Shown here: in pieces, positions 4,032-32,325 of the stretch
Position numbering within the stretch: position 1 is the stretch's first letter
How the letters are laid out: each line of letters starts with the position of its first letter
Sequence record: NC_048845.1
Reading direction: 5' to 3' (one strand)
DNA length: 52,092 bases
DNA from: Escherichia phage flopper
Made by a program: the position numbers and the translations under genes
The notes under the pieces: generated by a model
The model's database searches: none
What the model saw: the letters and a program-made list of their open reading frames with translations, nothing else
What the model was told of the DNA's origin: nothing

Positions 4032-4565
4032 TCACTCAGATACAAATTTCTCAAACCTCGCTACTACAGCAGGGTCAAACAGGTTAAAACAAGGTATTCC
4101 AGACTGCACTGCAACCTGATATGCAGTGTTGGTGCCTCCGCTCACACCAGTTGATGTTGTCGGAGCATACAAGATACAGAACTTGGATGGGGTGTCTAAG
4201 TTAAGCCCAAGTACCTGACTAACATTTCGTGCCTGTAGTTTCCAAAATCCTCTGTATTTGTCGAGGTTTCTTGTCTCTTTCTTGTGAATTAGTGGGTTTA
4301 CGTTTTCAACACTTTGCAGGTATTCCCAATTTCGATTCAGGTCCGGCACTACGCCACCATAACTTCCAAAACCATTCCAAGGTATAAAGTTCTCTGTCCT
4401 TCCGTTGCAGCCAGCCAGGAATGCTTCGTCAGCACCTTGAGCACCTCCCGTACGAACTACCCAACCAAGTCTGGCCAGTTTGGAAGCCACTTTAGTCAGC
4501 AGTTCGCAAATATGCCCGGGAGTTTCACGACTTCCCACACCAGTGTAAAACATAAATACCTCCAA
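4032..4565 (-). CDS. SLOG/DprA-like Rossmann-fold protein
   Basis: GVGSRETP...(n)...VVRTGGAQGADEAF resembles the GxGSR...SGGAxGxD motif of the DprA/Smf/YpsA superfamily. Confidence 0.5.
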   Translation of the reverse strand: MEVFMFYTGVGSRETPGHICELLTKVASKLARLGWVVRTGGAQGADEAFLAGCNGRTENFIPWNGFGSYGGVVPDLNRNWEYLQSVENVNPLIHKKETRNLDKYRGFWKLQARNVSQVLGLNLDTPSKFCILYAPTTSTGVSGGTNTAYQVAVQSGIPCFNLFDPAVVARFEKFVSE

Positions 4566-4580
4566 AAGTTGTTATTCACA

Positions 4581-4597
4581 CTCAACTAATGTTAGAT
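4581..4597 (-). promoter_or_regulatory. conserved intergenic motif copy
   Basis: CTCAACTAATGTTAGAT 16 nt upstream of the start at 4565. Confidence 0.35.
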
Positions 4598-4632
4598 TAA
4601 TCAGGAACACTCAATGAATGCTCCTTGTTAAT

Positions 4633-4920
4633 TTACATCATCTTTGAAATTGGAATTGGGTCCATGTTTGATTCAGGTTTATACCAACTGACTTCGCCAG
4701 AATCTTTCACAAGTTCCCAATTATCGGAGAATGTACGATAACATAAATTGCGGTTATCGTCATTAACGACAAAACCCAAAGGAGATTGAATATACGCACC
4801 GAGTGTACCGTTGTTACGAGGAACTCCGTCACCACGACCTGCGACGATTTTGTATTTCTTGCCGCTGGTAAAGTTGTAGTTTGTTTTACCAACATAACGT
4901 AAGACTGAATTCTTGTTCAT
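4633..4920 (-). CDS. hypothetical protein
   Basis: 95-aa ORF. Confidence 0.45.
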   Translation of the reverse strand: MNKNSVLRYVGKTNYNFTSGKKYKIVAGRGDGVPRNNGTLGAYIQSPLGFVVNDDNRNLCYRTFSDNWELVKDSGEVSWYKPESNMDPIPISKMM

Positions 4921-5150
4921 TGCTTTAGTTTCTCCAAAGCGGATAATACGGAATCTCCAGAACCACTAATCACAAGCGTTTCTCCTGGAAGATTGTAGGA
5001 TATGTAAGAGAACGTCCATTTTACAATAGTTCTCTGATACGATGAGCTGTATTTATCAGACAGCTCTATATCTTGCCTTGCATCGTTTAGCAAGAACTCC
5101 TGCCCATTGATGGTCAGTTGCTTAAACATTTCGATATAATTCTTACCCAC
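4917..5150 (-). CDS. hypothetical protein
   Basis: 77-aa ORF with 4-nt overlap to its neighbour. Confidence 0.4.
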   Translation of the reverse strand: MGKNYIEMFKQLTINGQEFLLNDARQDIELSDKYSSSYQRTIVKWTFSYISYNLPGETLVISGSGDSVLSALEKLKQ

Positions 5151-5433
5151 GCTTCACCTTCTCCCATTTGGATAAACCACCTTCAAGATTGAAGATGCGA
5201 TTGCAACCAGATTCATCTTTGATGACAAACTGAGTTCCGGTTAACTGGATTGGCTCAAGTGCACCAAATATTATCTTGGGACCAGACAAGCTGGTGGCAA
5301 GAACTTCATATGCTTTGCTTGGGCAAATATCAAAAGCAAAGTCACGAGTGTAAACTAAGTCACCAACTTTCAAGTATGCTGGCAACAAGCGACCTGTGGC
5401 TGGGTCACGTTGTAGACGAGTACGCTGTTTCAT
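5143..5433 (-). CDS. hypothetical protein
   Basis: 96-aa ORF. Confidence 0.45.
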   Translation of the reverse strand: MKQRTRLQRDPATGRLLPAYLKVGDLVYTRDFAFDICPSKAYEVLATSLSGPKIIFGALEPIQLTGTQFVIKDESGCNRIFNLEGGLSKWEKVKRG

Positions 5434-5496
5434 AAATGCTCCAAGTTAATTAATAATATTCAGCAACCACTCTCATTACAAAAGTGGTTGAGGAAA

Positions 5497-5703
5497 TTAT
5501 TTAATCTCTTCCCAAGTCCAGACACTACCTTTTAGTGGAACTTTTTCGCCAATGTTCCAGTAGGGTCTTCCGTTTACAGCCATTCGGTTGCCAACATTCG
5601 AAATAACTATTCGAGTGCCTACCAGTTCTCCTTCAATCACATCTCCGACTTTCGGAGTATGTTCAGATGAAGAGGTTGATTTCACACATTTAAACTTTGT
5701 CAT
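5497..5703 (-). CDS. hypothetical protein, paralog A (KFKCV...WTW family)
   Basis: 68 aa; shares MxKFKCVxST, a GE-containing core and a WTW motif with the adjacent ORF. Confidence 0.45.
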   Translation of the reverse strand: MTKFKCVKSTSSSEHTPKVGDVIEGELVGTRIVISNVGNRMAVNGRPYWNIGEKVPLKGSVWTWEEIK

Positions 5704-5939
5704 TGTAATAAGCCTTGTTCACAAATATCTGCAAATTCTGCTTCATGGTCACGCTGCCATGTCCAGAATGCACCATTCATAGGCACTACAGCACCTTTAC
5801 GAAATGCTGGAGAAACACTCTCAGCCGATTTGGTCACTTTAAATTCCAAAGGTGAGATAGCTTCACCTTCAACGATGAAGCCAACTGGAACATAATCTTT
5901 GGTTGAAGCAACACATTTAAATTTCATGATATAAAACAC
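5700..5939 (-). CDS. hypothetical protein, paralog B (KFKCV...WTW family)
   Basis: 79 aa; tandem paralog of 5497..5703; the true start may be the internal ATG (MKFKCV). Confidence 0.45.
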   Translation of the reverse strand: MFYIMKFKCVASTKDYVPVGFIVEGEAISPLEFKVTKSAESVSPAFRKGAVVPMNGAFWTWQRDHEAEFADICEQGLLQ

Positions 5940-6192
5940 CTATCTCAGATTTGAGGTTAAATTCACGAAAGAAATCCATTGTTACAAAACGGATTTTACC
6001 TTCATCATCAACTACGTTACAGGAGATTTCGGAGTGGACCATACGGCCCAACTTCAAAGCAACTTCTGACAGGTTTGCTTCACCAGTGCCAGAAATAACT
6101 TCATAGATTTTATATGGTGTAAAGCCGCTTAAAGAGTTATTACGGCTTGGGACAATCATCATTCCGGTCTTAGTAGCCATAATAACTCCCAA
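5917..6192 (-). CDS. hypothetical protein
   Basis: 91-aa ORF. Confidence 0.4.
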   Translation of the reverse strand: MGVIMATKTGMMIVPSRNNSLSGFTPYKIYEVISGTGEANLSEVALKLGRMVHSEISCNVVDDEGKIRFVTMDFFREFNLKSEIGVLYHEI

Positions 6193-6195
6193 TTG

Positions 6196-6489
6196 TTATT
6201 TGGTTAGTGTTAGTCTGTCTATTTCTTCAAGCGCAACTGCAAGCCGTTGCTGCAAATGGTTTTTCGTTTGCAACAACTCTTCATAAGCTGCTTTTTCCGC
6301 TTCACGTAATTCACGTAAAGTGGATATTTCACTCTTGCAATCTGAAACCTGTTTCTCAAGTTCGGTAATGTGCTCACCAGCCAAAGCCAGAAGTGCAACA
6401 TCAACACGCATTGAGGTAAGAATATCGGGATTGCTTGGAATAGAATTCTTAGCAACATTTGCTACATCGAGGAATTTCTGAATTGACAT
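6196..6489 (-). CDS. hypothetical coiled-coil protein
   Basis: 97 aa, helical Leu/Glu-rich C-terminal half. Confidence 0.45.
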   Translation of the reverse strand: MSIQKFLDVANVAKNSIPSNPDILTSMRVDVALLALAGEHITELEKQVSDCKSEISTLRELREAEKAAYEELLQTKNHLQQRLAVALEEIDRLTLTK

Positions 6490-6582
6490 GTGATACCTAT
6501 TAATAGATTAAGAAGCTGCCCACAACGAGCAGCACTAAAGGGAACATTAAAACGCAGAATACGAGCTTCTTTACAATATCCA

Positions 6583-6768
6583 TTATTTCACCAGGAAGTA
6601 GAGAGCAATCAGAAATCCAACACATGCAATGATTGTTGGCATATAATTATCAATTTTACGATATTGACGTTCAACTGGCTTCTTGCCCTTGATGGCTTCC
6701 ATCAGTTCTTGATGATTAATCTGCTGCATGAATGTGTTGAATTGCTGGTCGTTCATTTTATACTCCAA
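6583..6768 (-). CDS. small membrane protein (C-terminal TM helix)
   Basis: 61 aa ending in the hydrophobic segment IIACVGFLIALYFLV. Confidence 0.4.
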   Translation of the reverse strand: MEYKMNDQQFNTFMQQINHQELMEAIKGKKPVERQYRKIDNYMPTIIACVGFLIALYFLVK

Positions 6769-6913
6769 TTCCCAAAGACTAGATTAACGATTTTAGCCAC
6801 CTTACGTGCTGGCATACGAGGATTTGCAGCTCTTGCTAATTTCTTAGCCTTACGCTTTGAAGCACCGTACATAGCCATATATGTAACCGTTTTGGTCATA
6901 TATTTGAGCTTCT

Positions 6914-7102
6914 TCATTTAGCCTCCAGAATTTGGCTTAATGAACTGAACACGATTTCCTCATGTTCGTCAGGTGTACATGCGTTGATGTATTCAAAGTC
7001 ATACCCAACAAACTTCTCCGCCCACTGTTGCAAACGAAGTAAAGAATTGAAGTACAATCTTTGCTCCACACCATTTAACTTAAAGTAGACGATGAAGTCC
7101 AT
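6914..7102 (-). CDS. hypothetical protein
   Basis: 62-aa ORF. Confidence 0.35.
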   Translation of the reverse strand: MDFIVYFKLNGVEQRLYFNSLLRLQQWAEKFVGYDFEYINACTPDEHEEIVFSSLSQILEAK

Positions 7103-7117
7103 GTTTACTCCTATGTA

Positions 7118-7336
7118 TTAAACTTCAATTGACTCTTGAACTAAATCAGAAGCAGAGATTTCTTTAAACTCTTCCTCGGTAAAAGTTCTCTCATTGTCAT
7201 TTAATAAAACACCAATGCTAGAATCACCAACGAATACGGCATTTACATTAATGTCATCTTCCAAAACTTTTTGCAGATGTTCTCCGCCACGCGTAAAGAA
7301 GATTGCACCATCTTCCAAATCTTTAAAACGAGTCAC
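7118..7336 (-). CDS. hypothetical protein
   Basis: 72-aa ORF, first gene downstream of the 1.1-kb non-coding region. Confidence 0.4.
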   Translation of the reverse strand: MTRFKDLEDGAIFFTRGGEHLQKVLEDDINVNAVFVGDSSIGVLLNDNERTFTEEEFKEISASDLVQESIEV

Positions 7337-7530
7337 TTTATTCTCCTAAGTTAAAGAAAACTCCCTACAGAACGATTGTGGAGGTCTTGTCTTACCTCAA
7401 TCCACCTTAAAGTTGTAGGGAGTATGTGACACAGCAAGTGCCGAAGAACTACAATGATTAGCTTGGAGACATAATCTCTCTAAAATCTGTCACACAATTT
7501 CAGCAGAGTTTACAGAGATTTGGTCTTATT

Positions 7531-8360
7531 CACATGCAACTAATGATAAATGGACATGCTTAATTGCAACTAATTCATCTGCCAAATAGACGAATTTTGT
7601 CACAATTAAACATGCGTCATTAATTACAGGTTTACTCCCACACTTAACGTATTTGGCACATTAAGATTGGAGCAAGCAGGTACGGAAAACCGACCATGTA
7701 CAGCATAATAAAACTAATTAAATAAAGGGTTTTATCCCAATATTGTCACAATATTACATGCGATGATAAAGCCTTCGCTTGGCTGGAAGCCAGTATTCAT
7801 GCGGGTTGCAAGAATATTGGGTCAATACTGATACAGCTATTACATGCGAAATTGGCACAAATACTGTTACAAAATTAACATGCCAGATTGGTAGACGATT
7901 GTATCTTCGAGGTGATTAGTCCTCTAACAATTCTGCCACATTCCAACATGCCAATTTGTAGCAATATTTACATGCCATACTGCGACAATATTGTCACAAT
8001 ATTTGTTGCTCAAAATCGGGCGGGCTACGGGATTAGTTTCGCGGCTTTGCTCCGACTCTTCTCTTCTTTCGAATTCTGATTGAAAGAAAGAAGCATGTCC
8101 AAAAGTTCCAATATTACAAAAGTTATCTCCCGGCTTGTGGGTGGGCCTTTATAATAGGAGATGGAGCAATATTGTCGCAATTGAACATGCTTTAGTTGAA
8201 GAACAGTTTCGGATGATAATCCTACTTCACACATGGTTGCTGGAACTTTGTCCGGCCAAAGACAGGGAGTTCAATGATTGCCACATCATTACAACACTGT
8301 ATGTTTAGTTGACATGCTGAAATGTTTCTAGAATGATTTCAACATGACATGCGGAATACT
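7531..8360. repeat. cluster of at least 12 ACATGC half-site repeats in a non-coding region (candidate origin/regulatory region)
   Basis: Plus-strand ACATGC (often as ttACATGC / aACATGCc) recurs about 12 times in ~830 bp, plus aatattgtcacaatatt-type elements and a hairpin cttctttc-N11-gaaagaag near 8058-8095. Confidence 0.5.
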
Positions 8361-18652: not shown

Positions 18653-18999
18653 GTTAAGAATTCCGTAATGTCGCCATAGTCAGACAATGCAGTAAAGGAG
18701 ATTCCAAGTTTTCTGGCTCGATAGTCTGCATCAATATCTATAGATATTAGTTGCTGAACACCAGCAGTTCCACGAATGATATTGGCTATTGCTGCCTCAA
18801 TGTCCGAGGGACGCACTTGCTTTGTGAAGATTGCTTCGAACCACGGCAAGCCCAACGAACTGTCGAGCTTCCATTCTCCGAAGATTGTCAGCAATCTGCA
18901 CTTAACCAATTGAGCGACCTGAGCAGCACCTGAAATACGAGTTGTTCCACGACCAATAATAATGTCGTGGTTTGAATCAAGAGCTAAATTTCCAGCCAT
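18628..18999 (-). CDS. baseplate wedge protein (gpW/gp25-like)
   Basis: 123 aa; size and sequence character fit gpW/gp25-like proteins. Confidence 0.6.
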   Translation of the reverse strand: MAGNLALDSNHDIIIGRGTTRISGAAQVAQLVKCRLLTIFGEWKLDSSLGLPWFEAIFTKQVRPSDIEAAIANIIRGTAGVQQLISIDIDADYRARKLGISFTALSDYGDITEFLTWQQSNTA

Positions 19000-19814
19000 T
19001 ATTTCATCGGCCCAACGTCGCCGCCTTCTGGGTTAGTGTGAGTGTGGCCATCAACCTTAATACCATTAAGAGTGAGGGAACCAGTTTGGACCATGTTACC
19101 ATCCATCTTAAAGTTACCAGTGAACGTTGCAGTGGAGCCGTCTTTAGTCCCAGATACAGCCATGCCGCCCATCACTGTTAAAGATTTTGTAACGGTCGTA
19201 TCGCCATCCAATGTAATCTGCGGCGCTTTAACTGTAGCTTGCGACGTAACTTCAACGAGAATCTCCGAATCTTTTGTGATTTGAATCTTCGCAGCACCAG
19301 TAATGATTTCAATTAAACCATCACCATGCAGTGTTAGTCTTTGGCTCCTGTCTGCATTACGCAGTTCTGCTACTCCACCATTAAATCCCGGAATAACTTT
19401 AGTCAAAGGCTGAGTCCCAATGGTACATACGGCAGCATTGTGTGAGAACAGTTGGCTGAACTCTGGGGCAGGTCGCCCGTTTATTAAGCCAGCACTACTT
19501 TTATTCTCTGACAACCAATGGTCTATTCCTCGCTGGGAGAAATGGACATAACATGGAGTGCCATCTGGAACCGGATGAGTTAAACTCCAGCCGCCACCCT
19601 GAATAAATTGAACAGGAACACCCTGCAACCTTTGTTTTGGCTGCAAGGTGTAGGCTTCGGCATAACCCACGAACAAGTTTTCGATTGCAAGCTGGACTTC
19701 ACAAGTCTGTGTTGCTGCATCGAAGTTGTAGATGTGTCCTGGATAACTTGTGTTAATATCAGGAGCATTTTGGTTATTGTTATGACTAGCCACGTTCAAG
19801 TACACTCTCGTCAA
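18999..19814 (-). CDS. baseplate spike/hub protein (gpV-like)
   Basis: 271 aa with beta-rich C-terminal region ending GHTHTNPEGGDVGPMK (His-x-His at tip). Confidence 0.55.
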   Translation of the reverse strand: MTRVYLNVASHNNNQNAPDINTSYPGHIYNFDAATQTCEVQLAIENLFVGYAEAYTLQPKQRLQGVPVQFIQGGGWSLTHPVPDGTPCYVHFSQRGIDHWLSENKSSAGLINGRPAPEFSQLFSHNAAVCTIGTQPLTKVIPGFNGGVAELRNADRSQRLTLHGDGLIEIITGAAKIQITKDSEILVEVTSQATVKAPQITLDGDTTVTKSLTVMGGMAVSGTKDGSTATFTGNFKMDGNMVQTGSLTLNGIKVDGHTHTNPEGGDVGPMK

Positions 19815-20148
19815 TAATGAATAGGTAGAGTTGTCGGTAGCTTGTTACTTCTTCACCAGGGAATACTGTGTTAGCTGCATACATGTTTGGGAGAGGTGTC
19901 TTGTATTGCTTAAGAATATCAATACCGCATCGAATAGGGATTCCGAATATTTTATTCGTGGCTCCCCAAGCTAAGTCAAACATGTAGCAGTTTAAAGGTT
20001 CGTTTAAATATAGTGCAGACATTTTAACTGTTACACCATTAAACTCAAACGACACATCTTTCCTTATGTTGTAAGGAACACTTTTCACATATCCAGGGGG
20101 CAGAAGGTCAGCAATCTGTTTTAGGGCTTGATGTTCCTGCTCAATCAT
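19786..20148 (-). CDS. hypothetical tail/baseplate protein
   Basis: 120 aa in the tail block. Confidence 0.4.
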   Translation of the reverse strand: MIEQEHQALKQIADLLPPGYVKSVPYNIRKDVSFEFNGVTVKMSALYLNEPLNCYMFDLAWGATNKIFGIPIRCGIDILKQYKTPLPNMYAANTVFPGEEVTSYRQLYLFIIDESVLERG

Positions 20149-21032
20149 AGAATACGTCCCTTGATAGAAGAAAGTGGAGAAGCGAGTTTGCTCAACTTAC
20201 CTTTCAAGTTGGATAACTGTTTGGTTGGAGGAGTGCCAAGAGCACCAAGTCCCGGAAGTGGAACACCCCCAAGAACACCCATCCCCAAACTCTGCGCAAC
20301 CTTTGCAAATTCGGAGTAGTCAGACATTGATTCCATTGCCTTACGAGCTTCGCTGGCAAGAGCATCTTCTCCTACTGTTTGCAGCTCTTCAAACAAGATT
20401 TCAACCGACAACATTGCAGAAGTCATTTTATCATGTTTGGTTTTGATTGAGGTTACTACACAATTCAAATAGGGTCCCAGAATGGTGGAGATGTATAACT
20501 TCTGCCCCGTAACACGGAAGCTGTTAAACAAATCGTAAGTAGACTGGATTCGGTTGCTTGTCTCAAATGCAGAAGCAACACCACCAGCAATACCACCAAG
20601 AATTGGGATAACTGGACTATTGAAGATTGCACCAGAAGCAACAGACAAACCTTGTACAGATGCAGTCCACATGGATGAGTTCTGCATGTTGACAGCAACA
20701 GCGGTTAGCTTAAGCACCCTGTTCTGATTAATAACATGGTCGCTAACCAGGAACCCAGAACTAACAGGGAACTTGGTTACAGTTGTTTCCGATGCGTGTT
20801 CTTCGCTAACCATAGCATCGAATTTAAAGGAGTTAAAACTTTCGGTGGCAGACTCACCAACAACAGGTAAGCTCTCAAGAGATTTAGCAAACCCGCCAAA
20901 TAGCCCTGACTCCTCTTCCTTCTGTGTTGCAGGTCCGTTGGACCACATAACAATAGATGGATGATGCCCATAGCTGAAATTCTTCAAGCCAGAGGACACA
21001 CCACCAATGAGGTCGGTATCAAAGATAGACAT
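20145..21032 (-). CDS. tail/baseplate hub protein
   Basis: 295 aa between the tape-measure-like gene and the baseplate genes. Confidence 0.5.
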   Translation of the reverse strand: MSIFDTDLIGGVSSGLKNFSYGHHPSIVMWSNGPATQKEEESGLFGGFAKSLESLPVVGESATESFNSFKFDAMVSEEHASETTVTKFPVSSGFLVSDHVINQNRVLKLTAVAVNMQNSSMWTASVQGLSVASGAIFNSPVIPILGGIAGGVASAFETSNRIQSTYDLFNSFRVTGQKLYISTILGPYLNCVVTSIKTKHDKMTSAMLSVEILFEELQTVGEDALASEARKAMESMSDYSEFAKVAQSLGMGVLGGVPLPGLGALGTPPTKQLSNLKGKLSKLASPLSSIKGRIL

Positions 21033-22126
21033 TAAAATGACTCCATTGCCATTCCACTGTTAGCATACATTTCCTGCCACGCAGCTTCCTTACCGCCCAT
21101 CATTGTATTGCCACCCAGGATTGCAGTGATTGATGTTTGATAAGTGGTTGTGTGAGTCGAACCTTTATGCACAACTTCCATGATAAAGTATTTGTCTTCA
21201 ACAGCCCACCGGAATACGGACTGGTCTGTGTTAAGTACAATACCTTCCCCTGAAACAGAGGTCACACCATTGGCAAGTAGCTCATCTCCAAGCAAAGGAG
21301 ATACATCAAGAATCATCCCTGGTTGGAAAGATGGGTTTAGGAATGTGTTTAAAGTGTAGGTGCAGATTCCAGCAACAGGGTTTCCAATGACTGAGTTGGC
21401 ATCCAGCTTAACTGGCTCTCTGTCTTTGGACATTCTGTTTACTGCATCTTTATCACCAAAGGTGTCTGGGAAGATTTGGACTTCACCAGTTGTAACAGTG
21501 TATAGCAAGTTATACTCGCCAAGCATGTTACGAAATTCGTTTAAGAATGTGTCATGAAACACACGCCCACGAGGCATCACTGTTTCAAGGACTGAATCTT
21601 CAACACCAAATGTGGAGATGGTATTGAATCCATAGTCAGAACACATTGAGCGCATTGCATCAATGAGCTTGGTTCCAGGCTTGATTGCAGTCAACTGTTT
21701 GAAATCGGTGGATGCACCATATGCCTTGGAAATACAAAACAATTGTGTTACATGTTCAGGAGGCTTTCTGTAGCCAACTGCGTTTGTAATAATTCCGGAG
21801 AAGATGGTTGGCAAAGTGGTGTTTATTTCTATGCGGTTGCCTTGTTCGGCCTTCTGACCAAACTTTTTGACACCACCACTAGAAGCACCACGTTCATCTT
21901 CTGCATACCCTGCACGAATTTCAATATACATATCTCCGTAGGTCTTGTCCTGGAGGAACTTAACTTCTTCTAATGACAAGTTAAACAGAGTTATGTTTGC
22001 TGTATCGGCGGGCCACCCAACAGTAGAACGAACTTCAAAATCAATACGATGTGATTTAAATATTGTTCGAATGCTTGGGTCTTCTTTACGTGAAACTATT
22101 ACCTCAACTCTGCGTAGCCACGGCAT
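21032..22126 (-). CDS. tail protein (DNA-circulation/distal-tail-like position)
   Basis: 364 aa immediately downstream of the tape-measure-like gene. Confidence 0.5.
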   Translation of the reverse strand: MPWLRRVEVIVSRKEDPSIRTIFKSHRIDFEVRSTVGWPADTANITLFNLSLEEVKFLQDKTYGDMYIEIRAGYAEDERGASSGGVKKFGQKAEQGNRIEINTTLPTIFSGIITNAVGYRKPPEHVTQLFCISKAYGASTDFKQLTAIKPGTKLIDAMRSMCSDYGFNTISTFGVEDSVLETVMPRGRVFHDTFLNEFRNMLGEYNLLYTVTTGEVQIFPDTFGDKDAVNRMSKDREPVKLDANSVIGNPVAGICTYTLNTFLNPSFQPGMILDVSPLLGDELLANGVTSVSGEGIVLNTDQSVFRWAVEDKYFIMEVVHKGSTHTTTYQTSITAILGGNTMMGGKEAAWQEMYANSGMAMESF

Positions 22127-22198: not shown

Positions 22199-25100
22199 TT
22201 AACGTCTTTGTTGCGCACCGTTGTTCATGTTCATTTGTTGAGTCACAGTCTGACCACCAGGAATTGCAACTGTAGCAGAAGCAGTCTGGTTGTTGACCTT
22301 AGCATCAATCTTAACATTAACAACAGTTTGGGTTTGACCGTATGACATTCCATTACGAGTAAACCCTGTAGCACCTTCTTCCAGAGATTGAGAAGACTTG
22401 GACCATTCACGGAATGCTTTGACGCGATTCTGTGCTTGTACAGGAACAGCAGTCAGCCAATCCAATCCATTCTTATCAACAGCTTTGTCAACAGTGCCAG
22501 GACCATCTGTGTAAGCAGCCATTGCCTTTTCGTGGTCGCCATAACGCTTGTACATTGCGTCATAGTATTCACGACCAACTCGCGCATCATCTTCTGGAGT
22601 TCCATCAGACGGCCTGATTCCAAATCCTGGGTCACGGGCAGTCGAAGGGAGAATCTGCATTATCCCACGAGCACCAGTTGGACTTGTTACACGAGAACCA
22701 TCTTTGTTGTATTCACGACCGCCAGATTCCTCTTGGGCGATAAAGTCGTAAACATTTCCAGCAAATTCTCGCGTCTTATTCAGTCCAGTGCGTACACCGT
22801 CAAGTGCATCACTGCCAGCCTCAAATACAGAAGCACCATTAGATAAGACACTTTGTGGCACGTTGTAGCTTGGCAGCATCCGTGCGCGGCTTCCCTGCAA
22901 CATTTCCGATTGGGCCATACCTTCGGCAAAGTCGGAGTTTCTACCCGCTTCTACCACCGAACCAGCTTGCTCATGGCTGTATTCCGTGCGGTCATAGGCT
23001 CGCGCCATCCCATTCAGGCCAGCCATTTCAGCAGCACCTGCGATACGGGCCTGACTCCAGCCACGCTCCTTGCCCCTTTCCTGCATGATGCGAGCCAGGG
23101 CCACAGGGTCGCCGCCTGTCGCACGAATATCACCTATGGTGAGCAATCCCCTACTGCCGCGAACGATGTTCACAGCGGCGCTGGGGTCGCCGTTAAGCAT
23201 GGTGTTGTAGGCACTATGTGTGGTTTGATTCAGACGTGCCGCTTGTTGTGAATTGAGTCCTAACATCTCCAAGCCTTGCGACATAGAAGAATATTCATTA
23301 GGATTTATCACACCAGCATCAAGCGAGTTGCCGATAAAGTCATTCATGTATTCAGCAGCTTCATTGCCAATCTGAATGGCACCAATGCCTACGGCAGCCA
23401 TACGTCCCGCAGGAGTTGCCATCAATGCTTGCATAACTCCGTTGGTTGCTGAACCAATACTGCCACCAGCAATACCAGCAGCTAGTGAACCACCCATGCG
23501 ACCGTAGTCATCATAGTAGTTGCCACCACTTGTGAAGTTGCCGCCACGACCACCGCCACCGCCAGAATATCCACCGCCATTGGCAGCGTCAAATCTCTCA
23601 CGGTTCCAGCCCATTGAATCAGCTTTGCCGTCAAAGTCTGCATCTGCACCGATACCTTTCTGCCTGTTTTCTTCCTGAGCAGCAAGGATACCTTTCTTAA
23701 CAGACAATGCCATCGAGTCATTTCCGGTGTCACCATTACCAGTGGTTGCCGGAAAGTTTTGCTCGTGCAATACAAAGTTTGGCTTGTAGTCAGAGTAGGA
23801 TGCTTCTGGATTGTACGAAGAACGCGAACCAATAAACGGGTCTTCTGGGGTACCAGCAACAGCAGAATAGCCACGAGTAGACTTTTGACGAATATCTTTC
23901 CAGATTCCATCACCAGTCATTGCACTTCTTGCACCAGCAATCAGCTCTTCTCGCCCTAATCCAGCATTGTTTCTAACAAACTCTCGCCCAGCATCAAGAC
24001 GGCCAAGCACAGAATCAAGGCGATTTCGGTTTCTCTCGTACCATCCTTCGTCCTTCTCAATCCATTGTGAACGTGTTTCGTCGTTGATGGTTTGTGAGAA
24101 CAAAGCACGAGAACGGCCAGAAACGTGCATACCAAATTGAATTTGGTCCATGTAGTCTGGATGGTCGCCTTTAAGAAGGTCAGCAAACTTACCAGCCCTT
24201 TGCGGATTCTTGTGCTCCCAAATGGCATCATCCCCAATAAGACCATCAGGAGAATACATGAAGGCGGGATAGTTGTCATTTGTTATAGCGCCAGTTTGTT
24301 TGATATCAAATCCAAATTCCTTACTAACACGAGCGCGTGCTTCTTCTTCCGTCCTGTGACCATCAGCGAACATCTTCTTGGTGAAATCGCTGTGCTCTTT
24401 ACTACGAGATAGGCCAATCTTATCAATCATACCGGCCCAAGGTCGGGTGTATGGGTTGTTTCCTAAGAAGGTCCCAACAGTTGAGCCAGTTATGTCATAA
24501 TTTTTACGGAAGTCTAGCCACTCTTGGCTGCCCTGTTCTAAGTCGTGGAATCGGACGGGGGACTTGGAACGTCCTGTGCCATAGTCTGATACATCACGGA
24601 ATCCAGCACTATCCATGTTTGCAATCGCAAGTTCCTCGCGACGCATTCTTGCAGAGTTCCAATTGGTGGCCTCTCCAAGTTGTGCTGTAAAATCTGTAGA
24701 TGTTGACAGTGAATCTTTATCGACTCGCTGTGAAGCTCCCTTCATCTTTGGAATGCGAACAGGTTCGGCATCCATTTTATCATAAGTGTTTTCGAGGATG
24801 GCTCGAACACTTGATGCAGAATAAGCTGGCTCATCTGCAAGTTCAGAACGAAGGTTTTCGTATCCGCTTCTGGCTTCTTCCAAATCCGTGTAGCGTGTTG
24901 CACTATCAATAATCATGTCACGGTCAGATACTTCGTGACGAGTATTCAGCATCCCTTTGGAGCCAGAATAAACTTTGGCAGCAGATTTAACAGCTTCACT
25001 AATAGAAGAATACAAAGCCTTGCTTGGTGCACTCCAACCAGTGCCACCAGTTAATGATGCAGTGAGGGAGTATTCTGGATTTATGCCAGAACCATAAGAG

Positions 25101-25924
25101 CCAAGTGGTAGTCCAGATGCGTTAAGAGGTGCACGAGGATGCGCAATGCCAGAAACAATTGAAGGAGAACCAATCTGAGGGAGTGCATCCATGTAAGAAA
25201 TATGTGGGGCCGATTTATTTCCTACATTAGATGCGGATGTATACCCAACTTCCTTAAAGGCTGAGGGTAACTCTCGTTCCAGACGTTTGGCAACTCGACT
25301 AATGTCTCTTGCGTATTGTTCATGATTGCTGTATTGCTCACGGTCAACATACATGTGAGCCATGTAGTTATAGGAGTCAGCAATGTTTCCACGGTTGGTG
25401 GAGTATTCTGCCATAATATCCCCAGCATAGTGACCTGGGATTTCTGGCATAATGTCTTGATGCCCTTGCAAAGTATCTCGCATATAGGCATTAAGCATGT
25501 TGAAGTTACCTTGCGGTAAGTTCGGATTTGGCTTCGGCATGTGCATCCACACATCATCTGTGCTAACGCCAAGCCTTTCCATGTATGCGTGAACAGCTTC
25601 TACATGGTGTGATGGGCCATTCATTGCTGCATGAAATGCTTCTGTGTAGCCAGCACTTGAAAGCACTTGTGCAATGTGGGCAGCGTCTGAAATCATGGAA
25701 GAGTCACCCAAAGATTCAGTAATCAAACTGTCATCTTCGAACGACCCACCCATTAATTCTGCATTTGTATCCAGCCATCCCGAAGCAGCGCTCGCACTAA
25801 GTTGTTGAACCATGTGCGACTTCTTCATACCAGCATGGAAAGTCAGACCGCTTTGAGAGCCTAATGCAATTAACTCATTAACGCTCAACTTCATTAAATC
25901 TTTTTGATTAGCCATTGTCTTCAT
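22199..25924 (-). CDS. tape-measure-like multi-domain virion protein (nuclease + hydrophobic segment + SLT lytic transglycosylase)
   Basis: 1241 aa in the tape-measure position; aa ~460-575 QEWLDFRKNYDITGSTVGTFLGNNPY...SPDGLIGDDAIWEHK (YqaJ/lambda-exo-like); aa ~780-860 Gly/Ala-rich hydrophobic stretch; aa ~1055-1160 ESGGREYN...GIMQILPSTA...YY (SLT-like). Confidence 0.7.
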   Translation of the reverse strand: MKTMANQKDLMKLSVNELIALGSQSGLTFHAGMKKSHMVQQLSASAASGWLDTNAELMGGSFEDDSLITESLGDSSMISDAAHIAQVLSSAGYTEAFHAAMNGPSHHVEAVHAYMERLGVSTDDVWMHMPKPNPNLPQGNFNMLNAYMRDTLQGHQDIMPEIPGHYAGDIMAEYSTNRGNIADSYNYMAHMYVDREQYSNHEQYARDISRVAKRLERELPSAFKEVGYTSASNVGNKSAPHISYMDALPQIGSPSIVSGIAHPRAPLNASGLPLGSYGSGINPEYSLTASLTGGTGWSAPSKALYSSISEAVKSAAKVYSGSKGMLNTRHEVSDRDMIIDSATRYTDLEEARSGYENLRSELADEPAYSASSVRAILENTYDKMDAEPVRIPKMKGASQRVDKDSLSTSTDFTAQLGEATNWNSARMRREELAIANMDSAGFRDVSDYGTGRSKSPVRFHDLEQGSQEWLDFRKNYDITGSTVGTFLGNNPYTRPWAGMIDKIGLSRSKEHSDFTKKMFADGHRTEEEARARVSKEFGFDIKQTGAITNDNYPAFMYSPDGLIGDDAIWEHKNPQRAGKFADLLKGDHPDYMDQIQFGMHVSGRSRALFSQTINDETRSQWIEKDEGWYERNRNRLDSVLGRLDAGREFVRNNAGLGREELIAGARSAMTGDGIWKDIRQKSTRGYSAVAGTPEDPFIGSRSSYNPEASYSDYKPNFVLHEQNFPATTGNGDTGNDSMALSVKKGILAAQEENRQKGIGADADFDGKADSMGWNRERFDAANGGGYSGGGGGRGGNFTSGGNYYDDYGRMGGSLAAGIAGGSIGSATNGVMQALMATPAGRMAAVGIGAIQIGNEAAEYMNDFIGNSLDAGVINPNEYSSMSQGLEMLGLNSQQAARLNQTTHSAYNTMLNGDPSAAVNIVRGSRGLLTIGDIRATGGDPVALARIMQERGKERGWSQARIAGAAEMAGLNGMARAYDRTEYSHEQAGSVVEAGRNSDFAEGMAQSEMLQGSRARMLPSYNVPQSVLSNGASVFEAGSDALDGVRTGLNKTREFAGNVYDFIAQEESGGREYNKDGSRVTSPTGARGIMQILPSTARDPGFGIRPSDGTPEDDARVGREYYDAMYKRYGDHEKAMAAYTDGPGTVDKAVDKNGLDWLTAVPVQAQNRVKAFREWSKSSQSLEEGATGFTRNGMSYGQTQTVVNVKIDAKVNNQTASATVAIPGGQTVTQQMNMNNGAQQRR

Positions 25925-26542
25925 CTACTGGTTCGAGTTTCTTACGCAAATCGAGAATGTCGTGGAATAGCAATAAGTCCATAATCGAATAGGTTCCATC
26001 TTGCAACTCATGTAGCTTGCAGAGAGAACTGTCTTCGATTATAGGACGATGCAGAAAATATTTTATGTCGGGGAACAGGGATACTAAACTGTCTCCGGAC
26101 TCGAATTCTTCTGCTCTGCCAGCTTGGATGCTTCCTCCGCCTCCAATCGTCTCTGTTCGTTGATTTCGAGCCCTTGCTTGAAAAAATCAAGGAAGTTTGC
26201 TTCGAGCACGAAAGCAAAGACATGGCAAGACAACATCAATTCGCCATTGAACTGCATATCATATAATGCAGGTTTGATTTCTTGTCCATCTATGGACGAG
26301 TGCATGCTGATAACACGCTTAAACAATTCTGTGAATACGGTATGCTCTACTTGCTGCATCAAGTATATAATATCAGCGAAGTTATATTTACCTTCGATGA
26401 ATGGAAATACTCGTGAGCCTAACTTGCTTACCAACTCCGCGTGAAGAGACAGTGCAGCCGAAGCCGACAATTGTCGAACAACGACTAACACTGTTTCGCC
26501 TTTGGAGTTTGTGAATTCACGTTGAAGCAATTCACAAGCCAT
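25908..26542 (-). other. predicted -1 frameshift-extended tail chaperone product
   Basis: Slippery T TTT TTC at 26180..26186 in the zero frame; the -1 frame is open for 89 codons to TAA at 25908..25910, ending just inside the tape-measure start (25924). Confidence 0.5.
26084..26542 (-). CDS. tail assembly chaperone (zero-frame product)
   Basis: 152 aa between the tube and tape-measure genes; contains an in-frame T_TTT_TTC slippery heptamer. Confidence 0.6.
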   Translation of the reverse strand: MACELLQREFTNSKGETVLVVVRQLSASAALSLHAELVSKLGSRVFPFIEGKYNFADIIYLMQQVEHTVFTELFKRVISMHSSIDGQEIKPALYDMQFNGELMLSCHVFAFVLEANFLDFFKQGLEINEQRRLEAEEASKLAEQKNSSPETV

Positions 26543-26553
26543 ACTTACTCCAA

Positions 26554-27009
26554 TTAAACGCCAATCTCCGGATAAGAACCAGTCTTAATCTGGAGGCGCT
26601 CTACAAAGATAGACCACACGTTAGACGTGAAGGACACACCACGCTGAATTGCAGGTTGCTGCAAAATAGCGCCGTTTACACCATTGACCAGCACATCACC
26701 CATCTTGTCGACAATCTGAATCTGGAGCGGTTGCCACAGAGATTTGTTGCCAGACAGACCAGTTGCCTGAGTTAACTGAGCACGGCTGTACAAGATTTCG
26801 TTCCAGTCTGCGGTTTGCAGAAGCGGGAAAGTAATAGTACCAGACAAGTCAGCCGTAGTAGCTACAGCCAACTTACCATACGCGTCAATAACAGGTAGGT
26901 GTTGAGGTGCGTTACGACGAGCAGTGATGATGGAATTACCAGAGGTAAAACCATCTACACGAGCACCGTCGATAATGAGGTCGGTATTATAGAAAGAATA
27001 TTGTTTCAC
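26554..27009 (-). CDS. tail tube protein
   Basis: 151 aa directly downstream of the sheath gene. Confidence 0.6.
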   Translation of the reverse strand: MKQYSFYNTDLIIDGARVDGFTSGNSIITARRNAPQHLPVIDAYGKLAVATTADLSGTITFPLLQTADWNEILYSRAQLTQATGLSGNKSLWQPLQIQIVDKMGDVLVNGVNGAILQQPAIQRGVSFTSNVWSIFVERLQIKTGSYPEIGV

Positions 27010-27019
27010 TTATCGCACC

Positions 27020-28468
27020 TTACTGAACGAAGTTGCCAGAGATAACTGCACCCTGTAATGCGCCAGAGCCAATTGCAATGAAGGAAGTGCCTTCCCAGAT
27101 ACGAGCACCTTTCTGAGATTGCATCAGAGCCAAGTCAGTAGACAAGACTTTGTAACCATCAGGATAGAAGTTGCCTTCATTGTCGTAACCTGGAGCAATC
27201 AGACCATTGGTCACTGCCAGTTCCAGAGCCAGGGTTACTTGCTGGTTCACCAGTGCAACACCAGTGTCCGTCCAAGGAATCTTGGTAGTGGAAGTGTAGA
27301 ACAGGTTGAACACGTTAGCACGAATCTTGGAGGTTAGCCAAGAAACACCCTGCACGGTATCGAACCAAGTACCGTCAGCCATCTTGCCGTTGTAGAACAT
27401 AGTGTTCCCACCAACGTTGATGAATGCGTTACCGTTAACACGCTCAAGTGCAGCAAGCTGGTTCGGGGACAAGTCAGCAGTCTTGATAGCTGGACCTTGC
27501 TTAAACGCCAGAACGAGCGAGGAGTTTGCAACGTTGAAGTTAACAGTAGATGCACGACCCAGGATAGAAATCTCTGGATATTCGTCGCCATTGTCGGAAG
27601 CATCATACACCAGCAGGGTGCGCTGTAGATTCTGCTCTTTAGCCCGCTTGAAGCTAGATTCAGCACCAGCAACCAGAATCTGTTTATCACTGTCAGCCCA
27701 GCCAAACACTTTCTCGTTTGCTTCTGCCCACTTGGCAACAGTCATTTGAACATTGCCAGCAGCACTGCCACGATATTTGCGGTCGATTGCAACGAAGAAG
27801 AAGTTGAACGTCGAGTTCAAGATTGCGTTCAGGTCTGTTCCTACAGATACTTCATCAGTGCCATGCACATATACCGGACTTGAATCTGCATCAAGTTCGA
27901 ATGCTGGAGCAGCAGAGCCGTATACATCACCGATAATGGAGTTAGAGCCTTTAGACTCGGTCACAACTTTAAAGGTGCCTTCGCTATGAGTCATGGTTAC
28001 GGGAATACCCGCAGCAACCAGTGCAGCGTTTGCCATAGAGGCAGCAGCATCAAAGTCAGAGGCCGAAGAGAAGTTGATTGGGGCCGTAGAATGGTCTACA
28101 CCATCAACGTTAATAGACAGCACACCGTTAGTAAGCGCAGTGATAGTTCCCAGAGTTGCAGCAGCAGATGCAGTAACAGTGCCTGGAGTTGCCGGAGTAA
28201 CATCTTCATGAGTGATAGCACCCACGAGGAAATACTTCGGAGTCGGTTTCTGAGAGTACCATGCCAAAGCAGCTTGGTAGATTTCACCAGATGGGAAATC
28301 GGCAGAAACAGCAGCCATGCTGGAATACTGGCGAACAGGAACACGTTCACCTGGTGCTGGAACAAACTGCTTGCTCAAGAACAGTAGCGGACCAAAACCT
28401 TCCACGGCAACAGCGTTAGGGGATACCGCGATGTTGACCTGGATGATATCGGAAATTGGAATTGCCAT
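27020..28468 (-). CDS. contractile tail sheath protein
   Basis: 482 aa preceding the tube and chaperone genes in the myovirus-type order. Confidence 0.65.
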   Translation of the reverse strand: MAIPISDIIQVNIAVSPNAVAVEGFGPLLFLSKQFVPAPGERVPVRQYSSMAAVSADFPSGEIYQAALAWYSQKPTPKYFLVGAITHEDVTPATPGTVTASAAATLGTITALTNGVLSINVDGVDHSTAPINFSSASDFDAAASMANAALVAAGIPVTMTHSEGTFKVVTESKGSNSIIGDVYGSAAPAFELDADSSPVYVHGTDEVSVGTDLNAILNSTFNFFFVAIDRKYRGSAAGNVQMTVAKWAEANEKVFGWADSDKQILVAGAESSFKRAKEQNLQRTLLVYDASDNGDEYPEISILGRASTVNFNVANSSLVLAFKQGPAIKTADLSPNQLAALERVNGNAFINVGGNTMFYNGKMADGTWFDTVQGVSWLTSKIRANVFNLFYTSTTKIPWTDTGVALVNQQVTLALELAVTNGLIAPGYDNEGNFYPDGYKVLSTDLALMQSQKGARIWEGTSFIAIGSGALQGAVISGNFVQ

Positions 28469-31276: not shown

Positions 31277-31705
31277 TTAAGACTTCGGCGTAATAGCAAT
31301 CTCTTTAGTTGCAGTCACGCTGGAGGTTGTTTTGTTTGTTGCCTTAACCGTGGCAGAGGTATCGGTAGTTGTCTCATTTAAGACGGTTACAGTACCATTT
31401 GCAGCCACAGAAACGCCAGTCACAGGAGGCGTAATAGCGTAGGTGTAGTCTGTTGCTGTAGAGTTACCAAACTTAAACAGTTTGTCTACAGTTACAGTGG
31501 CATCAGTAGAAGACGCATCAGCCGTTACAACTCCATCTACAGCAGACACCGTAGGTGCAGGAGGCTTAGGCTTAATCGTAATCTGTTTGGATGCAGTTAC
31601 GCCAGACTCTGTTTTATTTGTTGCCTTGATTGTCGCAGAAGTGGCTGTAGTCGTTGCACTGAGTACAGTCACAGTGCCGTTTGCCGCCACAGAAACACCA
31701 GTCAC
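31277..31705 (-). CDS. Ig-like (BIG-type) tandem-repeat domain protein
   Basis: Two near-identical ~48-aa repeats (VTGVSVAANGTVTVL...ATNKT...) with a third copy upstream in the same frame, open to 31870 without ATG/GTG/TTG. Confidence 0.55.
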   Translation of the reverse strand: MTGVSVAANGTVTVLSATTTATSATIKATNKTESGVTASKQITIKPKPPAPTVSAVDGVVTADASSTDATVTVDKLFKFGNSTATDYTYAITPPVTGVSVAANGTVTVLNETTTDTSATVKATNKTTSSVTATKEIAITPKS

Positions 31706-31851
31706 GGGAGGTGTAACAGCGAAGTTATAATCTGTTGCCGCAGAGTTCTCAAACTTAAACAGTTTGTCTACAGTTACAGTTGCATCAGAGGCAGATGCGT
31801 CCGCAGTTAAAGCCCCTGCAACAGCAGATACTGTAGGAGCTGGAGGTGGCG

Positions 31852-32325
31852 TTACGGCTTTGGGACTACGTTAATCATGACCGGGACAACATCACCAGCG
31901 GAAGCCGGATAACGCAGGGCAGTCAGGTTGGTTGCTTTAGTATAACCAGCACCAACGCCACCAAATTCACCTTTAGTGGATACGCCGATGTTCTTGTCGG
32001 TGATTGCGGTTTTCAGTTTGACCATGATTGGGCCAGACAGCATAACACCCAGGGGCCAGCCAACTTTAATAGCAACAGTGCCGTCACCAGGACGAGTAGC
32101 AGATTCGATGTTAAGCTGGCGCATGGTAATGCCCAGAACAGTGCCGTCAGCCTCAATACCAGGCTTAACCTGATTAGAAGCCGTGCCTTGAACAACAGCC
32201 AGACCAAAGTTTGCCATTTCTTCTTCGGCAACGTAAGTCAGGCGCTGGGAGTTGGTGGTAGCCAGGCCATATTGTTCACCTGCATATGCTTCACCAGTAT
32301 TAATAGACCAATCTTGCTTTGGCAT
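31852..32325 (-). CDS. head decoration / accessory capsid protein (zero-frame product)
   Basis: 157 aa ending ...VVPKP with slippery C_CCA_AAG two codons before the stop. Confidence 0.5.
   Translation of the reverse strand: MPKQDWSINTGEAYAGEQYGLATTNSQRLTYVAEEEMANFGLAVVQGTASNQVKPGIEADGTVLGITMRQLNIESATRPGDGTVAIKVGWPLGVMLSGPIMVKLKTAITDKNIGVSTKGEFGGVGAGYTKATNLTALRYPASAGDVVPVMINVVPKP

Follow-up and report, generated by a model that had tools for sequence, protein, structure and literature searches.

The window analysed here is the whole stretch of 52,092 nucleotides (nt) of Escherichia phage flopper (sequence record NC_048845.1), and our subject is the gene at 22199–25924, which codes for a virion protein of 1241 amino acids (aa) in the position of a tape measure protein and contains a nuclease domain of the lambda exonuclease type. 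The DNA of this segment is 93–97% identical to that of the Escherichia phages vB_EcoM_SA91KD, DE15, Bp7/Bp10, ST32 and SKA49 and 83–86% identical to that of Mangalitsa and phiEcoM-GJ1 (GJ1). The window is that of a phiEcoM-GJ1-like myophage and falls into the same taxon as the matched phages (Chaseviridae, Cleopatravirinae, Carltongylesvirus). Phages of the Carltongylesvirus group are myophages of ~52 kb with a T7-like RNA polymerase and replication module, and the genomes of Chaseviridae are linear and non-permuted with direct terminal repeats of ~3 kb, these repeat lengths being literature values rather than values read from the window. We looked for a long direct repeat in the window and found none, so that it contains only one copy of the terminal repeat. 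All genes of the structural module lie on the minus strand, including the 1241-aa open reading frame (ORF), which had been placed at 22199–25924 by the initial annotation and was recovered there. The gene and the elements of its nuclease domain are as follows:

22199..25924, minus strand: gene of the tape-measure-position virion protein, 1241 aa, ATG start, ortholog of phiEcoM-GJ1 gp62, full-length match to PHROG 19855
23825..24562, minus strand: lambda-exonuclease/YqaJ-type PD-(D/E)XK nuclease domain, residues 455–700 (Pfam, profile comparison with the PDB, AlphaFold2, Foldseek, ratio of nonsynonymous to synonymous substitution rates, dN/dS)
24209..24247, minus strand: catalytic motif D560...E570-H-K572, aligned to D119/E129/K131 of lambda exonuclease (HMMER alignment, conservation)
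24506..24508, minus strand: codon of R473, counterpart of R28 in the 5'-phosphate pocket of lambda exonuclease (alignment; invariant column)

PHROG 19855, a family named "virion structural protein", matches the protein from end to end. The ORF opens with MKTMANQ, homologs start with MANxK, and Met4 is nearly invariant; judged from this pattern, translation may begin at Met4 (nt 25915) and yield 1238 aa, and the start codon in the Mangalitsa record lies later still. The gene is variously labelled tail fiber, tape measure, virion structural protein, tail tube initiator, hypothetical protein or putative endonuclease in public records, and the original annotation of GJ1 noted only a transglycosylase.

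The initial annotation had read a YqaJ/lambda-exonuclease domain with a PDG...ExK arrangement at residues ~460–575, and the motifs it quoted lie at the residues and nucleotides it gave: QEWLDFRKNYDITGSTVG begins at residue 467, and SPDGLIGDDAIWEHK represents residues 558–572. A Pfam search, one of the checks it proposed, returned YqaJ (PF09588) with E = 8.9e-14 and 52.4 bits (cut-off 22) at residues 468–604, spanning profile positions 1–149 of 150, and the Pfam core corresponds to nt 24113–24523. Other profile libraries agreed. RecE-like exonuclease families in PHROGs match the protein (PHROG 434, E = 3e-19), and the NCBIfam model TIGR03033 (phage_rel_nuc) aligned over positions 1–152 of 153 with E = 3.6e-15 and 56.4 bits, which is below its cut-off of 68.05; by this score, the domain is a divergent relative outside the curated TIGR03033 subfamily. 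For comparison with the PDB we built a family profile from 17 members, which matched LHK-Exo (3syy) at 6.5e-17, covering residues 1–201 of its 216, and lambda exonuclease (1avq) at 4.4e-10.

Structure prediction, another check suggested, likewise gave the lambda exonuclease fold. An AlphaFold2 model of residues 445–665 reached a mean pLDDT (predicted local distance difference test) of 89.6 and a predicted template modelling score of 0.86, and the top Foldseek matches in the PDB were lambda exonuclease (3slp, E = 1.6e-10) and LHK-Exo (3syy, template modelling scores 0.71/0.81), with scores of 0.65–0.81 and E values of ~1e-10 for these two. Other fold matches include mimivirus R354 and Cas4-like enzymes, and a search of BFVD with the same model returned stand-alone viral YqaJ exonucleases together with one Chaseviridae protein of 1230 aa.

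HMMER alignment to 1avq and 6m9k placed D560 (nt 24245–24247), E570 (24215–24217) and K572 (24209–24211) on the catalytic residues of lambda exonuclease. It further paired R473 with R28, S481 with S35, S558 with S117 and Q594 with Q157, as well as W469 with W24 and Y591 with Y154. The lambda exonuclease residues R28, S35, S117 and Q157 reportedly form the 5'-phosphate binding pocket of that enzyme; the family acts on 5'-phosphorylated ends of double-stranded DNA (dsDNA). In an alignment of 58 sequences that reaches 20% identity, D560, E570, K572, R473 and Q594 do not vary, and S481 and S558 are at least 90% conserved. From the motifs and their alignment, the nuclease domain is complete and apparently catalytically competent.

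The whole 58-sequence alignment contains only 17 invariant columns, and 11 of these lie within the nuclease (R473, G522, E526, R530, D560, G561, E570, K572, Y591, Q594 and Q596). Against Mangalitsa, dN/dS was 0.084 for the nuclease, 0.06 for the C-terminal lytic transglycosylase (SLT) domain and 0.089 for a helical domain between them, as compared to 0.39–0.46 for two linkers; going by these ratios, the nuclease domain is under strong purifying selection. A word-indexed search recovered 88 homologs of ~1200–1284 aa and two shorter, probably partial ones (807 and 903 aa), and nearly all of the 88 carry both PF09588 and PF01464 (SLT) in precomputed Pfam tables. When 1.84 billion representatives were searched exhaustively with a profile, 16 clusters scored E<1e-30; except for one fragment, these consist of proteins of 1188–1446 aa with the domain at ~400–900. 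More long proteins follow below them, and free-standing exonucleases of 200–300 aa begin only at about E = 1e-22. Five distant long homologs (P0096, P0099, P0104, P0108 and P0092) are located on contigs, each after a Phage_TAC_15 chaperone gene; a small ORF separates the two genes except on L007, which is short. The three long contigs also contain the sheath and tube genes upstream and the baseplate genes downstream. None of the distant long homologs has lost the catalytic or end-binding residues. On one of these contigs (L005, from a metagenome), 2.7 kb without called genes (4909–7669) extend from the chaperone extension to a 109-aa ORF in front of P0099, a YqaJ protein of 962 aa; the tape measure gene may be split or interrupted there, unless an error in assembly or gene calling is responsible.

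The same tape measure position is occupied in Aeromonas phage BUCT696, a member of the Nefertitivirinae, by gp54 (1185 aa, positions 4327–7884 of its locus L009), which matches YqaJ with E = 9.5e-9, shows the motifs TPDA...EVK and Y.QMQ.QM and retains the helical domain, while a search of this protein for an SLT domain gave no detectable match. Judged from these profile matches, the nuclease and not the muralytic domain is the constant feature in the lineages sampled from both subfamilies. The subfamily of BUCT696 must breach the peptidoglycan in another way, and a PAAR protein is annotated in the baseplate module of this phage.

The remainder of the protein consists of the following parts:

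24563..25924, minus strand: N-terminal region, residues 1–454, with folded blocks at ~80–150 and 170–380 and a disordered linker at 381–454 (AlphaFold2)
23357..23824, minus strand: disordered Gly/Ala-rich linker, residues 701–856 (composition, hydropathy, pLDDT below 50)
23366–23494, minus strand: hydrophobic, glycine-zipper-like stretch, residues 811–853 (composition, hydropathy)
22889..23356, minus strand: conserved all-helical domain, residues 857–1012 (AlphaFold2 pLDDT 86–93; dN/dS 0.089)
22391..22756, minus strand: SLT family lytic transglycosylase domain, residues 1057–1178 (Pfam; Slt70 match; conservation)
22199..22390, minus strand: C-terminal tail, residues 1179–1241 and stop codon, with the end ...GQTVTQ..N..NGA.QRR (family consensus)

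The lytic transglycosylase had been predicted at residues ~1055–1160, and Pfam SLT (PF01464) indeed matched residues 1061–1152 with E = 1e-12. Because both Pfam scores are well above the gathering cut-offs, a chance match can be excluded for YqaJ as well as for SLT. The protein also matched Slt70 (1qsa, E = 4.7e-4) and families of lytic tail proteins and endolysins in PHROGs. The catalytic pair E1066-S1067 (nt 22724–22729) is invariant or nearly so, and the motifs G-I-M-Q at 1087–1090 (GxMQ) and A-Y-T-D-G at 1137–1141 (AYxxG) can be read in the sequence. The helical domain in front of it has the most constant length within the family (153–158 aa), and both domains together gave weak fold matches to enzymes of the Slt70/Cj0843 type. 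In residues 780–860, which had been described as a Gly/Ala-rich hydrophobic stretch, Gly makes up 30% and Ala 17%, and a hydrophobic core lies at 829–852; the composition is as claimed and the hydrophobicity moderate. G817, G821, G829 and G840 are invariant in the 20 closer homologs and retained to 90% or more across the 58 sequences.

We modelled residues 1–1200 as a monomer with AlphaFold2 from the 58-sequence alignment, which may not reflect the packaged state. The model contains folded blocks at 80–150, 170–380, 455–700, 857–1012 and 1057–1178 (pLDDT 80–95), separated by low-confidence linkers at 381–454, 702–856 and 1013–1056; pLDDT is also low in the C-terminal tail, which by analogy may dock in the baseplate hub. 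The architecture predicted by this model, and strongly supported by it, is one of folded modules strung together by disordered linkers like beads on a string. Among the best 50 Foldseek matches of the whole model in the PDB, there were no folds other than those of the nuclease and SLT types, and the N-terminal region gave no Pfam match at E<=10.

Several further candidates were dropped. A SAP/HeH-like DNA-binding motif seen by eye at residues 12–45 gave no Pfam match even at E<=10 when this segment was searched by itself. A fused annealing protein of the Red-beta, RecT or Rad52-like type in residues 1–454 found no Pfam match and no such fold among the best 50 Foldseek matches. An intein or mobile insertion as the source of the nuclease segment gave no Hint-type Pfam match, and the protein contains no cysteine. 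A nested gene with an internal start before the nuclease would need Met437, which is not conserved (consensus Leu/Asp). In every long family member, the nuclease is found in a comparable place, between about one third and one half of the chain length, which argues against a sporadic insertion.

The sliding identity to GJ1 gp62 is 94–100% for residues 1–150 and 88–98% for most of 700–1241 and drops to 36–76% for 150–700, where GJ1 is 88–98% identical to phage MLP1, a phage that is distant in the rest of the protein. Synonymous divergence agrees with an exchange of this nuclease segment (residues ~150–700, nt ~23825–25477). The SLT region (residues ~1013–1178, nt ~22391–22888) shows a synonymous divergence (dS) of 1.3, as compared to 0.18–0.27 in its flanks, and probably represents a second exchanged cassette. 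The paper on ST32 lists this gene as 76% identical between ST32 and GJ1 and its immediate neighbours as ~98–100% identical, without comment. On the basis of these identities, the enzymatic modules appear to be shuffled as cassettes between lineages with their active sites intact.

The tail module around the gene follows the order terminator, sheath, tube, chaperone, 1241-aa ORF and baseplate hub, and continues downstream with the Dit-like, plug, spike, sheath initiator and baseplate J genes. Its relevant elements are:

27020..28468, minus strand: tail sheath protein, 482 aa (PHROG 205, E = 1.6e-100; PF11863, E217_gp31_N/DUF3383, E = 1.3e-63)
26554..27009, minus strand: tail tube protein, 151 aa (PHROG 280, E = 3.3e-32; weak match to the Pfam KPP10_Orf10/PhiTE tube family)
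26084..26542, minus strand: tail assembly chaperone, 152 aa (Phage_TAC_15, PF21822, E = 2.9e-18; PHROG 11820, E = 2.5e-75)
25908..26186, minus strand: programmed -1 frameshift and extension of the chaperone (slippery T_TTT_TTC at 26186..26180; stop TAA at 25910..25908)
21032..22126, minus strand: baseplate hub protein, 364 aa, directly downstream of the 1241-aa gene (PHROG 196, E = 4.8e-52)
20145..21032, minus strand: Dit-like baseplate or tail-tube-initiator protein, 295 aa (Dit_like, E = 8e-21; PHROG 17031)
18999..19814: spike gene (PF18352), separate from the 1241-aa gene

The Mangalitsa record also names the counterpart of the 151-aa gene a tube protein. After the in-frame T_TTT_TTC of the chaperone gene, the -1 frame stays open for 90 codons and ends with its TAA 17 nt inside the 1241-aa ORF, confirming the earlier placement of this ORF behind sheath, tube and chaperone at the frameshift stop. 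All seven loci compared, including those of homologs with ~20% identity, contain T_TTT_TTC at codon 114–120 followed by an extension of 83–96 codons. The extension did not appear in the ORF list, having fewer than 60 aa from its first ATG. A 71-aa ATG ORF at 26008..26223 (minus strand) was considered as the chaperone extension and rejected, being in the +1 frame and without a family match; it is probably spurious, the true extension being the -1 frame ending at 25908. The annotations of GJ1 gp61 and ST32 ORF65 disagree here. A frameshifting chaperone gene is reportedly the classic arrangement ahead of tape measure genes.

No other ORF of the tail module is long enough for a tape measure, and the lengths within the family vary little (1188–1303 aa, median 1233, standard deviation 25, down to 20% identity). 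That the product is a tail-lumen protein in the tape measure position is strongly supported. Its function as a ruler is likely and relies on position, synteny and length conservation rather than on structure: these parts of the claim that it is the tape measure stood, whereas AlphaFold2 predicted a chain of folded domains in place of an extended coiled coil. A fully helical chain of 1241 aa at 1.5 Å per residue would measure 186 nm, as compared to tails of 116–166 nm (132 nm in PP101), and the two can be reconciled only if some segments are unextended. As a rough estimate, three copies of 134 kDa would need ~0.5 × 10^6 cubic Å, and a lumen of 40 Å × 1300 Å would hold ~1.6 × 10^6. Going by this volume, three copies may fit only with their domains in single file or partly unfolded. 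A pre-assembled ring like that of lambda exonuclease, we infer, could not be accommodated in the lumen.

Direct evidence for the protein in particles comes from phage 4HA13, the ortholog of which (63% identical, 128 kDa) was covered to 64–67% by liquid chromatography with tandem mass spectrometry of CsCl-purified virions (PMC9699118, Table S2). The occurrence in virions, which the initial annotation had proposed to check, is therefore established for this ortholog and not for the flopper protein itself. Taken together, it is very probable that the nuclease domain exists, is under selection and is carried in the virion. The single-stranded DNA-binding protein (SSB) of 4HA13 (13 kDa) was detected with 62% coverage beside the structural proteins (PMC9699118, Table S2) and may be either a DNA-bound contaminant or a packaged protein; if packaged, it would matter for an annealing step right after entry.

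A further, probable frameshift was noticed elsewhere in the window, at the gene of a 157-aa, cement-like virion protein (31852..32325, minus strand). A tandem repeat of 282 nt with 77% identity (31280–31561 and 31562–31843, minus strand, in region 31277–32325) encodes two Thr/Val/Ala-rich, Ig-like-looking repeats of ~94 aa in the -1 frame of this upstream gene. A canonical C_CCA_AAG heptamer (31858–31864) opens the repeat frame two codons before the stop of the 157-aa gene. From these features, a programmed frameshift probably appends two display domains to the capsid decoration protein; public records annotate the repeat region as a separate ORF with an internal start.

For the function of the nuclease, we prefer a role in resecting the ends of the phage's own genome, which we rate at a probability of roughly 0.35–0.4. 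In located tape measures (T5 pb2, pyocin R2 and several phage cryo-electron microscopy studies), the C-terminus is lodged in the baseplate or tip and is the first part to leave. In flopper, the protein would correspondingly exit the tube with its C-terminus ahead upon sheath contraction, in the order C-terminal tail, SLT domain, helical domain, Gly-rich stretch, nuclease, N-terminal domains and DNA. The SLT and helical module would cut the peptidoglycan in the periplasm, the glycine-zipper-like stretch may engage the inner membrane, and the N-terminal half with the nuclease would emerge last and reach the cytoplasm beside the leading DNA end. There, possibly as a trimer like lambda exonuclease, the nuclease would bind the 5'-phosphorylated blunt ends of the phage genome and, ahead of all phage gene expression, resect them in 5'->3' direction into the direct terminal repeats of ~3 kb. 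The exposed complementary 3' tails could anneal, forming a circle or concatemers; they would also be poor entry sites for RecBCD, the blunt ends needed by RecBCD having been removed. Because of the terminal redundancy, the loss of end sequence would be harmless.

The initial annotation had suggested either an attack on host DNA or plasmids at entry or a processing of the phage's own DNA, and on the sequence evidence both are hypotheses. We favour the phage's own DNA ends as the substrate because the lambda exonuclease family needs a 5'-phosphorylated dsDNA end, and the ends of the phage genome are the most obvious ones in the cell at entry. The annotation of the close relative SA91KD contains no separate module of a lambda-type exonuclease and a single-strand annealing protein (SSAP), which we also count in favour of own-end resection. 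The complete proposal that the tape measure of Chaseviridae serves as a vehicle for delivering a lambda-exonuclease-type enzyme with the genome, which resects the phage's own repeats before expression and leaves RecBCD-resistant, anneal-ready ends, is put forward tentatively and is doubtful as a whole. Several observations weigh against the preferred reading. Nuclease activity, oligomeric state, ejection and entry into the cytoplasm are all points which we infer. A folded domain of ~27 kDa has no obvious fit in a tube lumen of ~4 nm, and a trimer certainly has none, and the model lacks the long coiled coil expected of a ruler. The core at 829–852 reaches a Kyte-Doolittle maximum of only 1.2, which is under a typical transmembrane score. 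Pfam, fold search and annotation revealed no annealing protein fused to or beside the nuclease. The phage encodes a T7 gp6-like 5'-3' exonuclease, endonuclease VII and a ligase, and processing of the terminal repeats could fall to these enzymes. Finally, the 4HA13 preparation also contained non-structural proteins such as SSB, indicating imperfect purity (PMC9699118), and the reported coverage is a figure for the whole protein without peptide positions for the nuclease segment.

An intact, selected and virion-borne nuclease would equally fit an injected weapon which degrades other DNA at entry, such as a broken or replicating chromosome, plasmids, co-infecting phages or defence elements, and thereby aids host shut-off or the removal of competitors at that moment. 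Some members of the wider family combine endo- and exonuclease activity (mimivirus R354 and Cas4-like enzymes are among the fold matches), the MAC arrays, with Pne1, offer a precedent for a phage-tail-like particle loaded with a nuclease in its lumen, and the swapping of the nuclease-bearing segment (~150–700) as a cassette may be expected in an arms race. We nevertheless regard this as unlikely: the conserved 5'-phosphate pocket points to dsDNA ends, which intact chromosomes and plasmids do not offer, only a few copies enter per infection, and for the later breakdown of host DNA the phage has an endonuclease and a 5'-3' exonuclease of its own. The same pocket, with R473, S481, S558 and Q594 conserved, would also suit a non-catalytic clamp or plug that holds the genome terminus in the neck or tube and caps the end against RecBCD after entry with little or no hydrolysis. 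Virion proteins that protect DNA ends are established for T4 (gp2) and Mu (N), and an active nuclease beside packaged DNA would be dangerous to the phage. However, D560, E570 and K572 do not vary in either subfamily or in homologs of only ~20% identity, as is typical of a working site, even if metal-dependent binding might also keep these residues, and the domain is located in mid-chain (455–700) instead of at the N-terminal end expected nearest to the DNA; we judge a pure clamp to be distinctly unlikely.

The poor fit of folded domains in the tube lumen, deduced from the AlphaFold2 model, would be avoided if the nuclease served in the producer cell, in late recombination, concatemer processing or DNA clearing before assembly, or were cleaved off, the fusion being a device for expression or stoichiometry. 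Late structural genes are strongly expressed, and some tape measures are known to be proteolytically processed (lambda gpH and T5 pb2). However, the position of the domain is fixed in very divergent homologs and the total length is tightly conserved, a coverage of 64–67% of the 128-kDa virion ortholog would be hard to reach if a large part were removed, and separate replication and recombination nucleases are encoded by the phage, which makes this explanation more improbable still. Lastly, records reading "tail fiber", "putative tail fiber" or "probable T4 gp5 analog" would make the protein a fiber or T4 gp5-like spike rather than a component of the tail lumen. We give this almost no credence, because the gene follows directly after the frameshifting chaperone gene and precedes the hub gene, a separate spike gene (PF18352, 18999..19814) and separate fiber genes exist beside it, Pfam, PHROGs and fold searches of the protein gave no match to a fiber or receptor-binding domain, and the tail module holds no alternative ORF of tape measure length.

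The nuclease is as conserved as the muralytic domain and persists where SLT is undetectable. This implies that it does something essential and so far unexplored within seconds of the start of infection: it may process the genome ends, protect against RecBCD or attack resident DNA. If own-end resection is correct, phage genome entry would include an enzymatic step that has so far gone unrecognised, and the protein would be the first tape measure with a catalytic domain directed to the cytoplasm rather than to the envelope. Apart from this, it is a structural question how a chain of folded enzymes fits into a contractile tail and sets its length, and the records of such genes are now labelled inconsistently. 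The YqaJ domain call itself was already visible in precomputed Pfam tables. New are the observations that the domain is conserved throughout the family, that its active site and end-binding pocket are intact, that it is under selection and persists where SLT was lost, and that a beads-on-a-string architecture is predicted for the protein. A full-text literature search on tape measures in connection with nuclease domains, YqaJ, lambda exonuclease or Chaseviridae retrieved no description of a nuclease in a tape measure, the nearest match being a host membrane nuclease that senses tape measure proteins and is not phage-borne.

Compared to known systems, the domain shares with lambda exonuclease (Red-alpha), LHK-Exo and YqaJ a full-length match, the fold, the D...ExK triad and the counterparts of the pocket residues. 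Known members of this family are free-standing proteins of ~200–300 aa or the C-terminal domain of RecE, produced inside the cell and as a rule accompanied by an annealing protein, whereas the flopper domain is embedded at residues 455–700 of a 1241-aa virion tail protein with no SSAP partner detected. Other particle-borne proteins, such as T4 gp2, Mu N, P1 Dar and Pne1 of MAC, share with it the concept of acting on or protecting DNA or of a nuclease cargo in a contractile tube; none of them is of the lambda exonuclease type or part of a tape measure polypeptide, and the likeness is conceptual and does not imply homology. T7 gp16, an internal core and ejection protein said to have an N-terminal lytic transglycosylase, is similar in being virion-internal, ejected ahead of the DNA, equipped with an SLT-type domain and thought to bridge the envelope, and the Chaseviridae phage shares a T7-type RNA polymerase and replication module with T7. 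T7 gp16 belongs to the head core of a podovirus and contains no nuclease, whereas the flopper protein belongs to the tail module of a myovirus. Cell-wall enzymes are found in several tape measures, such as the M23 peptidase of T5 pb2, the Rpf motif of TM4 and the SLT or peptidase domains of staphylococcal and lactococcal tape measures, and tape measures are not known to include a DNA-acting enzyme. The flopper protein resembles these tape measures in the gene position after a frameshifting chaperone, the hydrophobic Gly-rich segment and the muralytic domain towards the C-terminus. While their accessory domains act on the envelope, the flopper protein adds a DNA nuclease, predicted to be one of the beads on its string.

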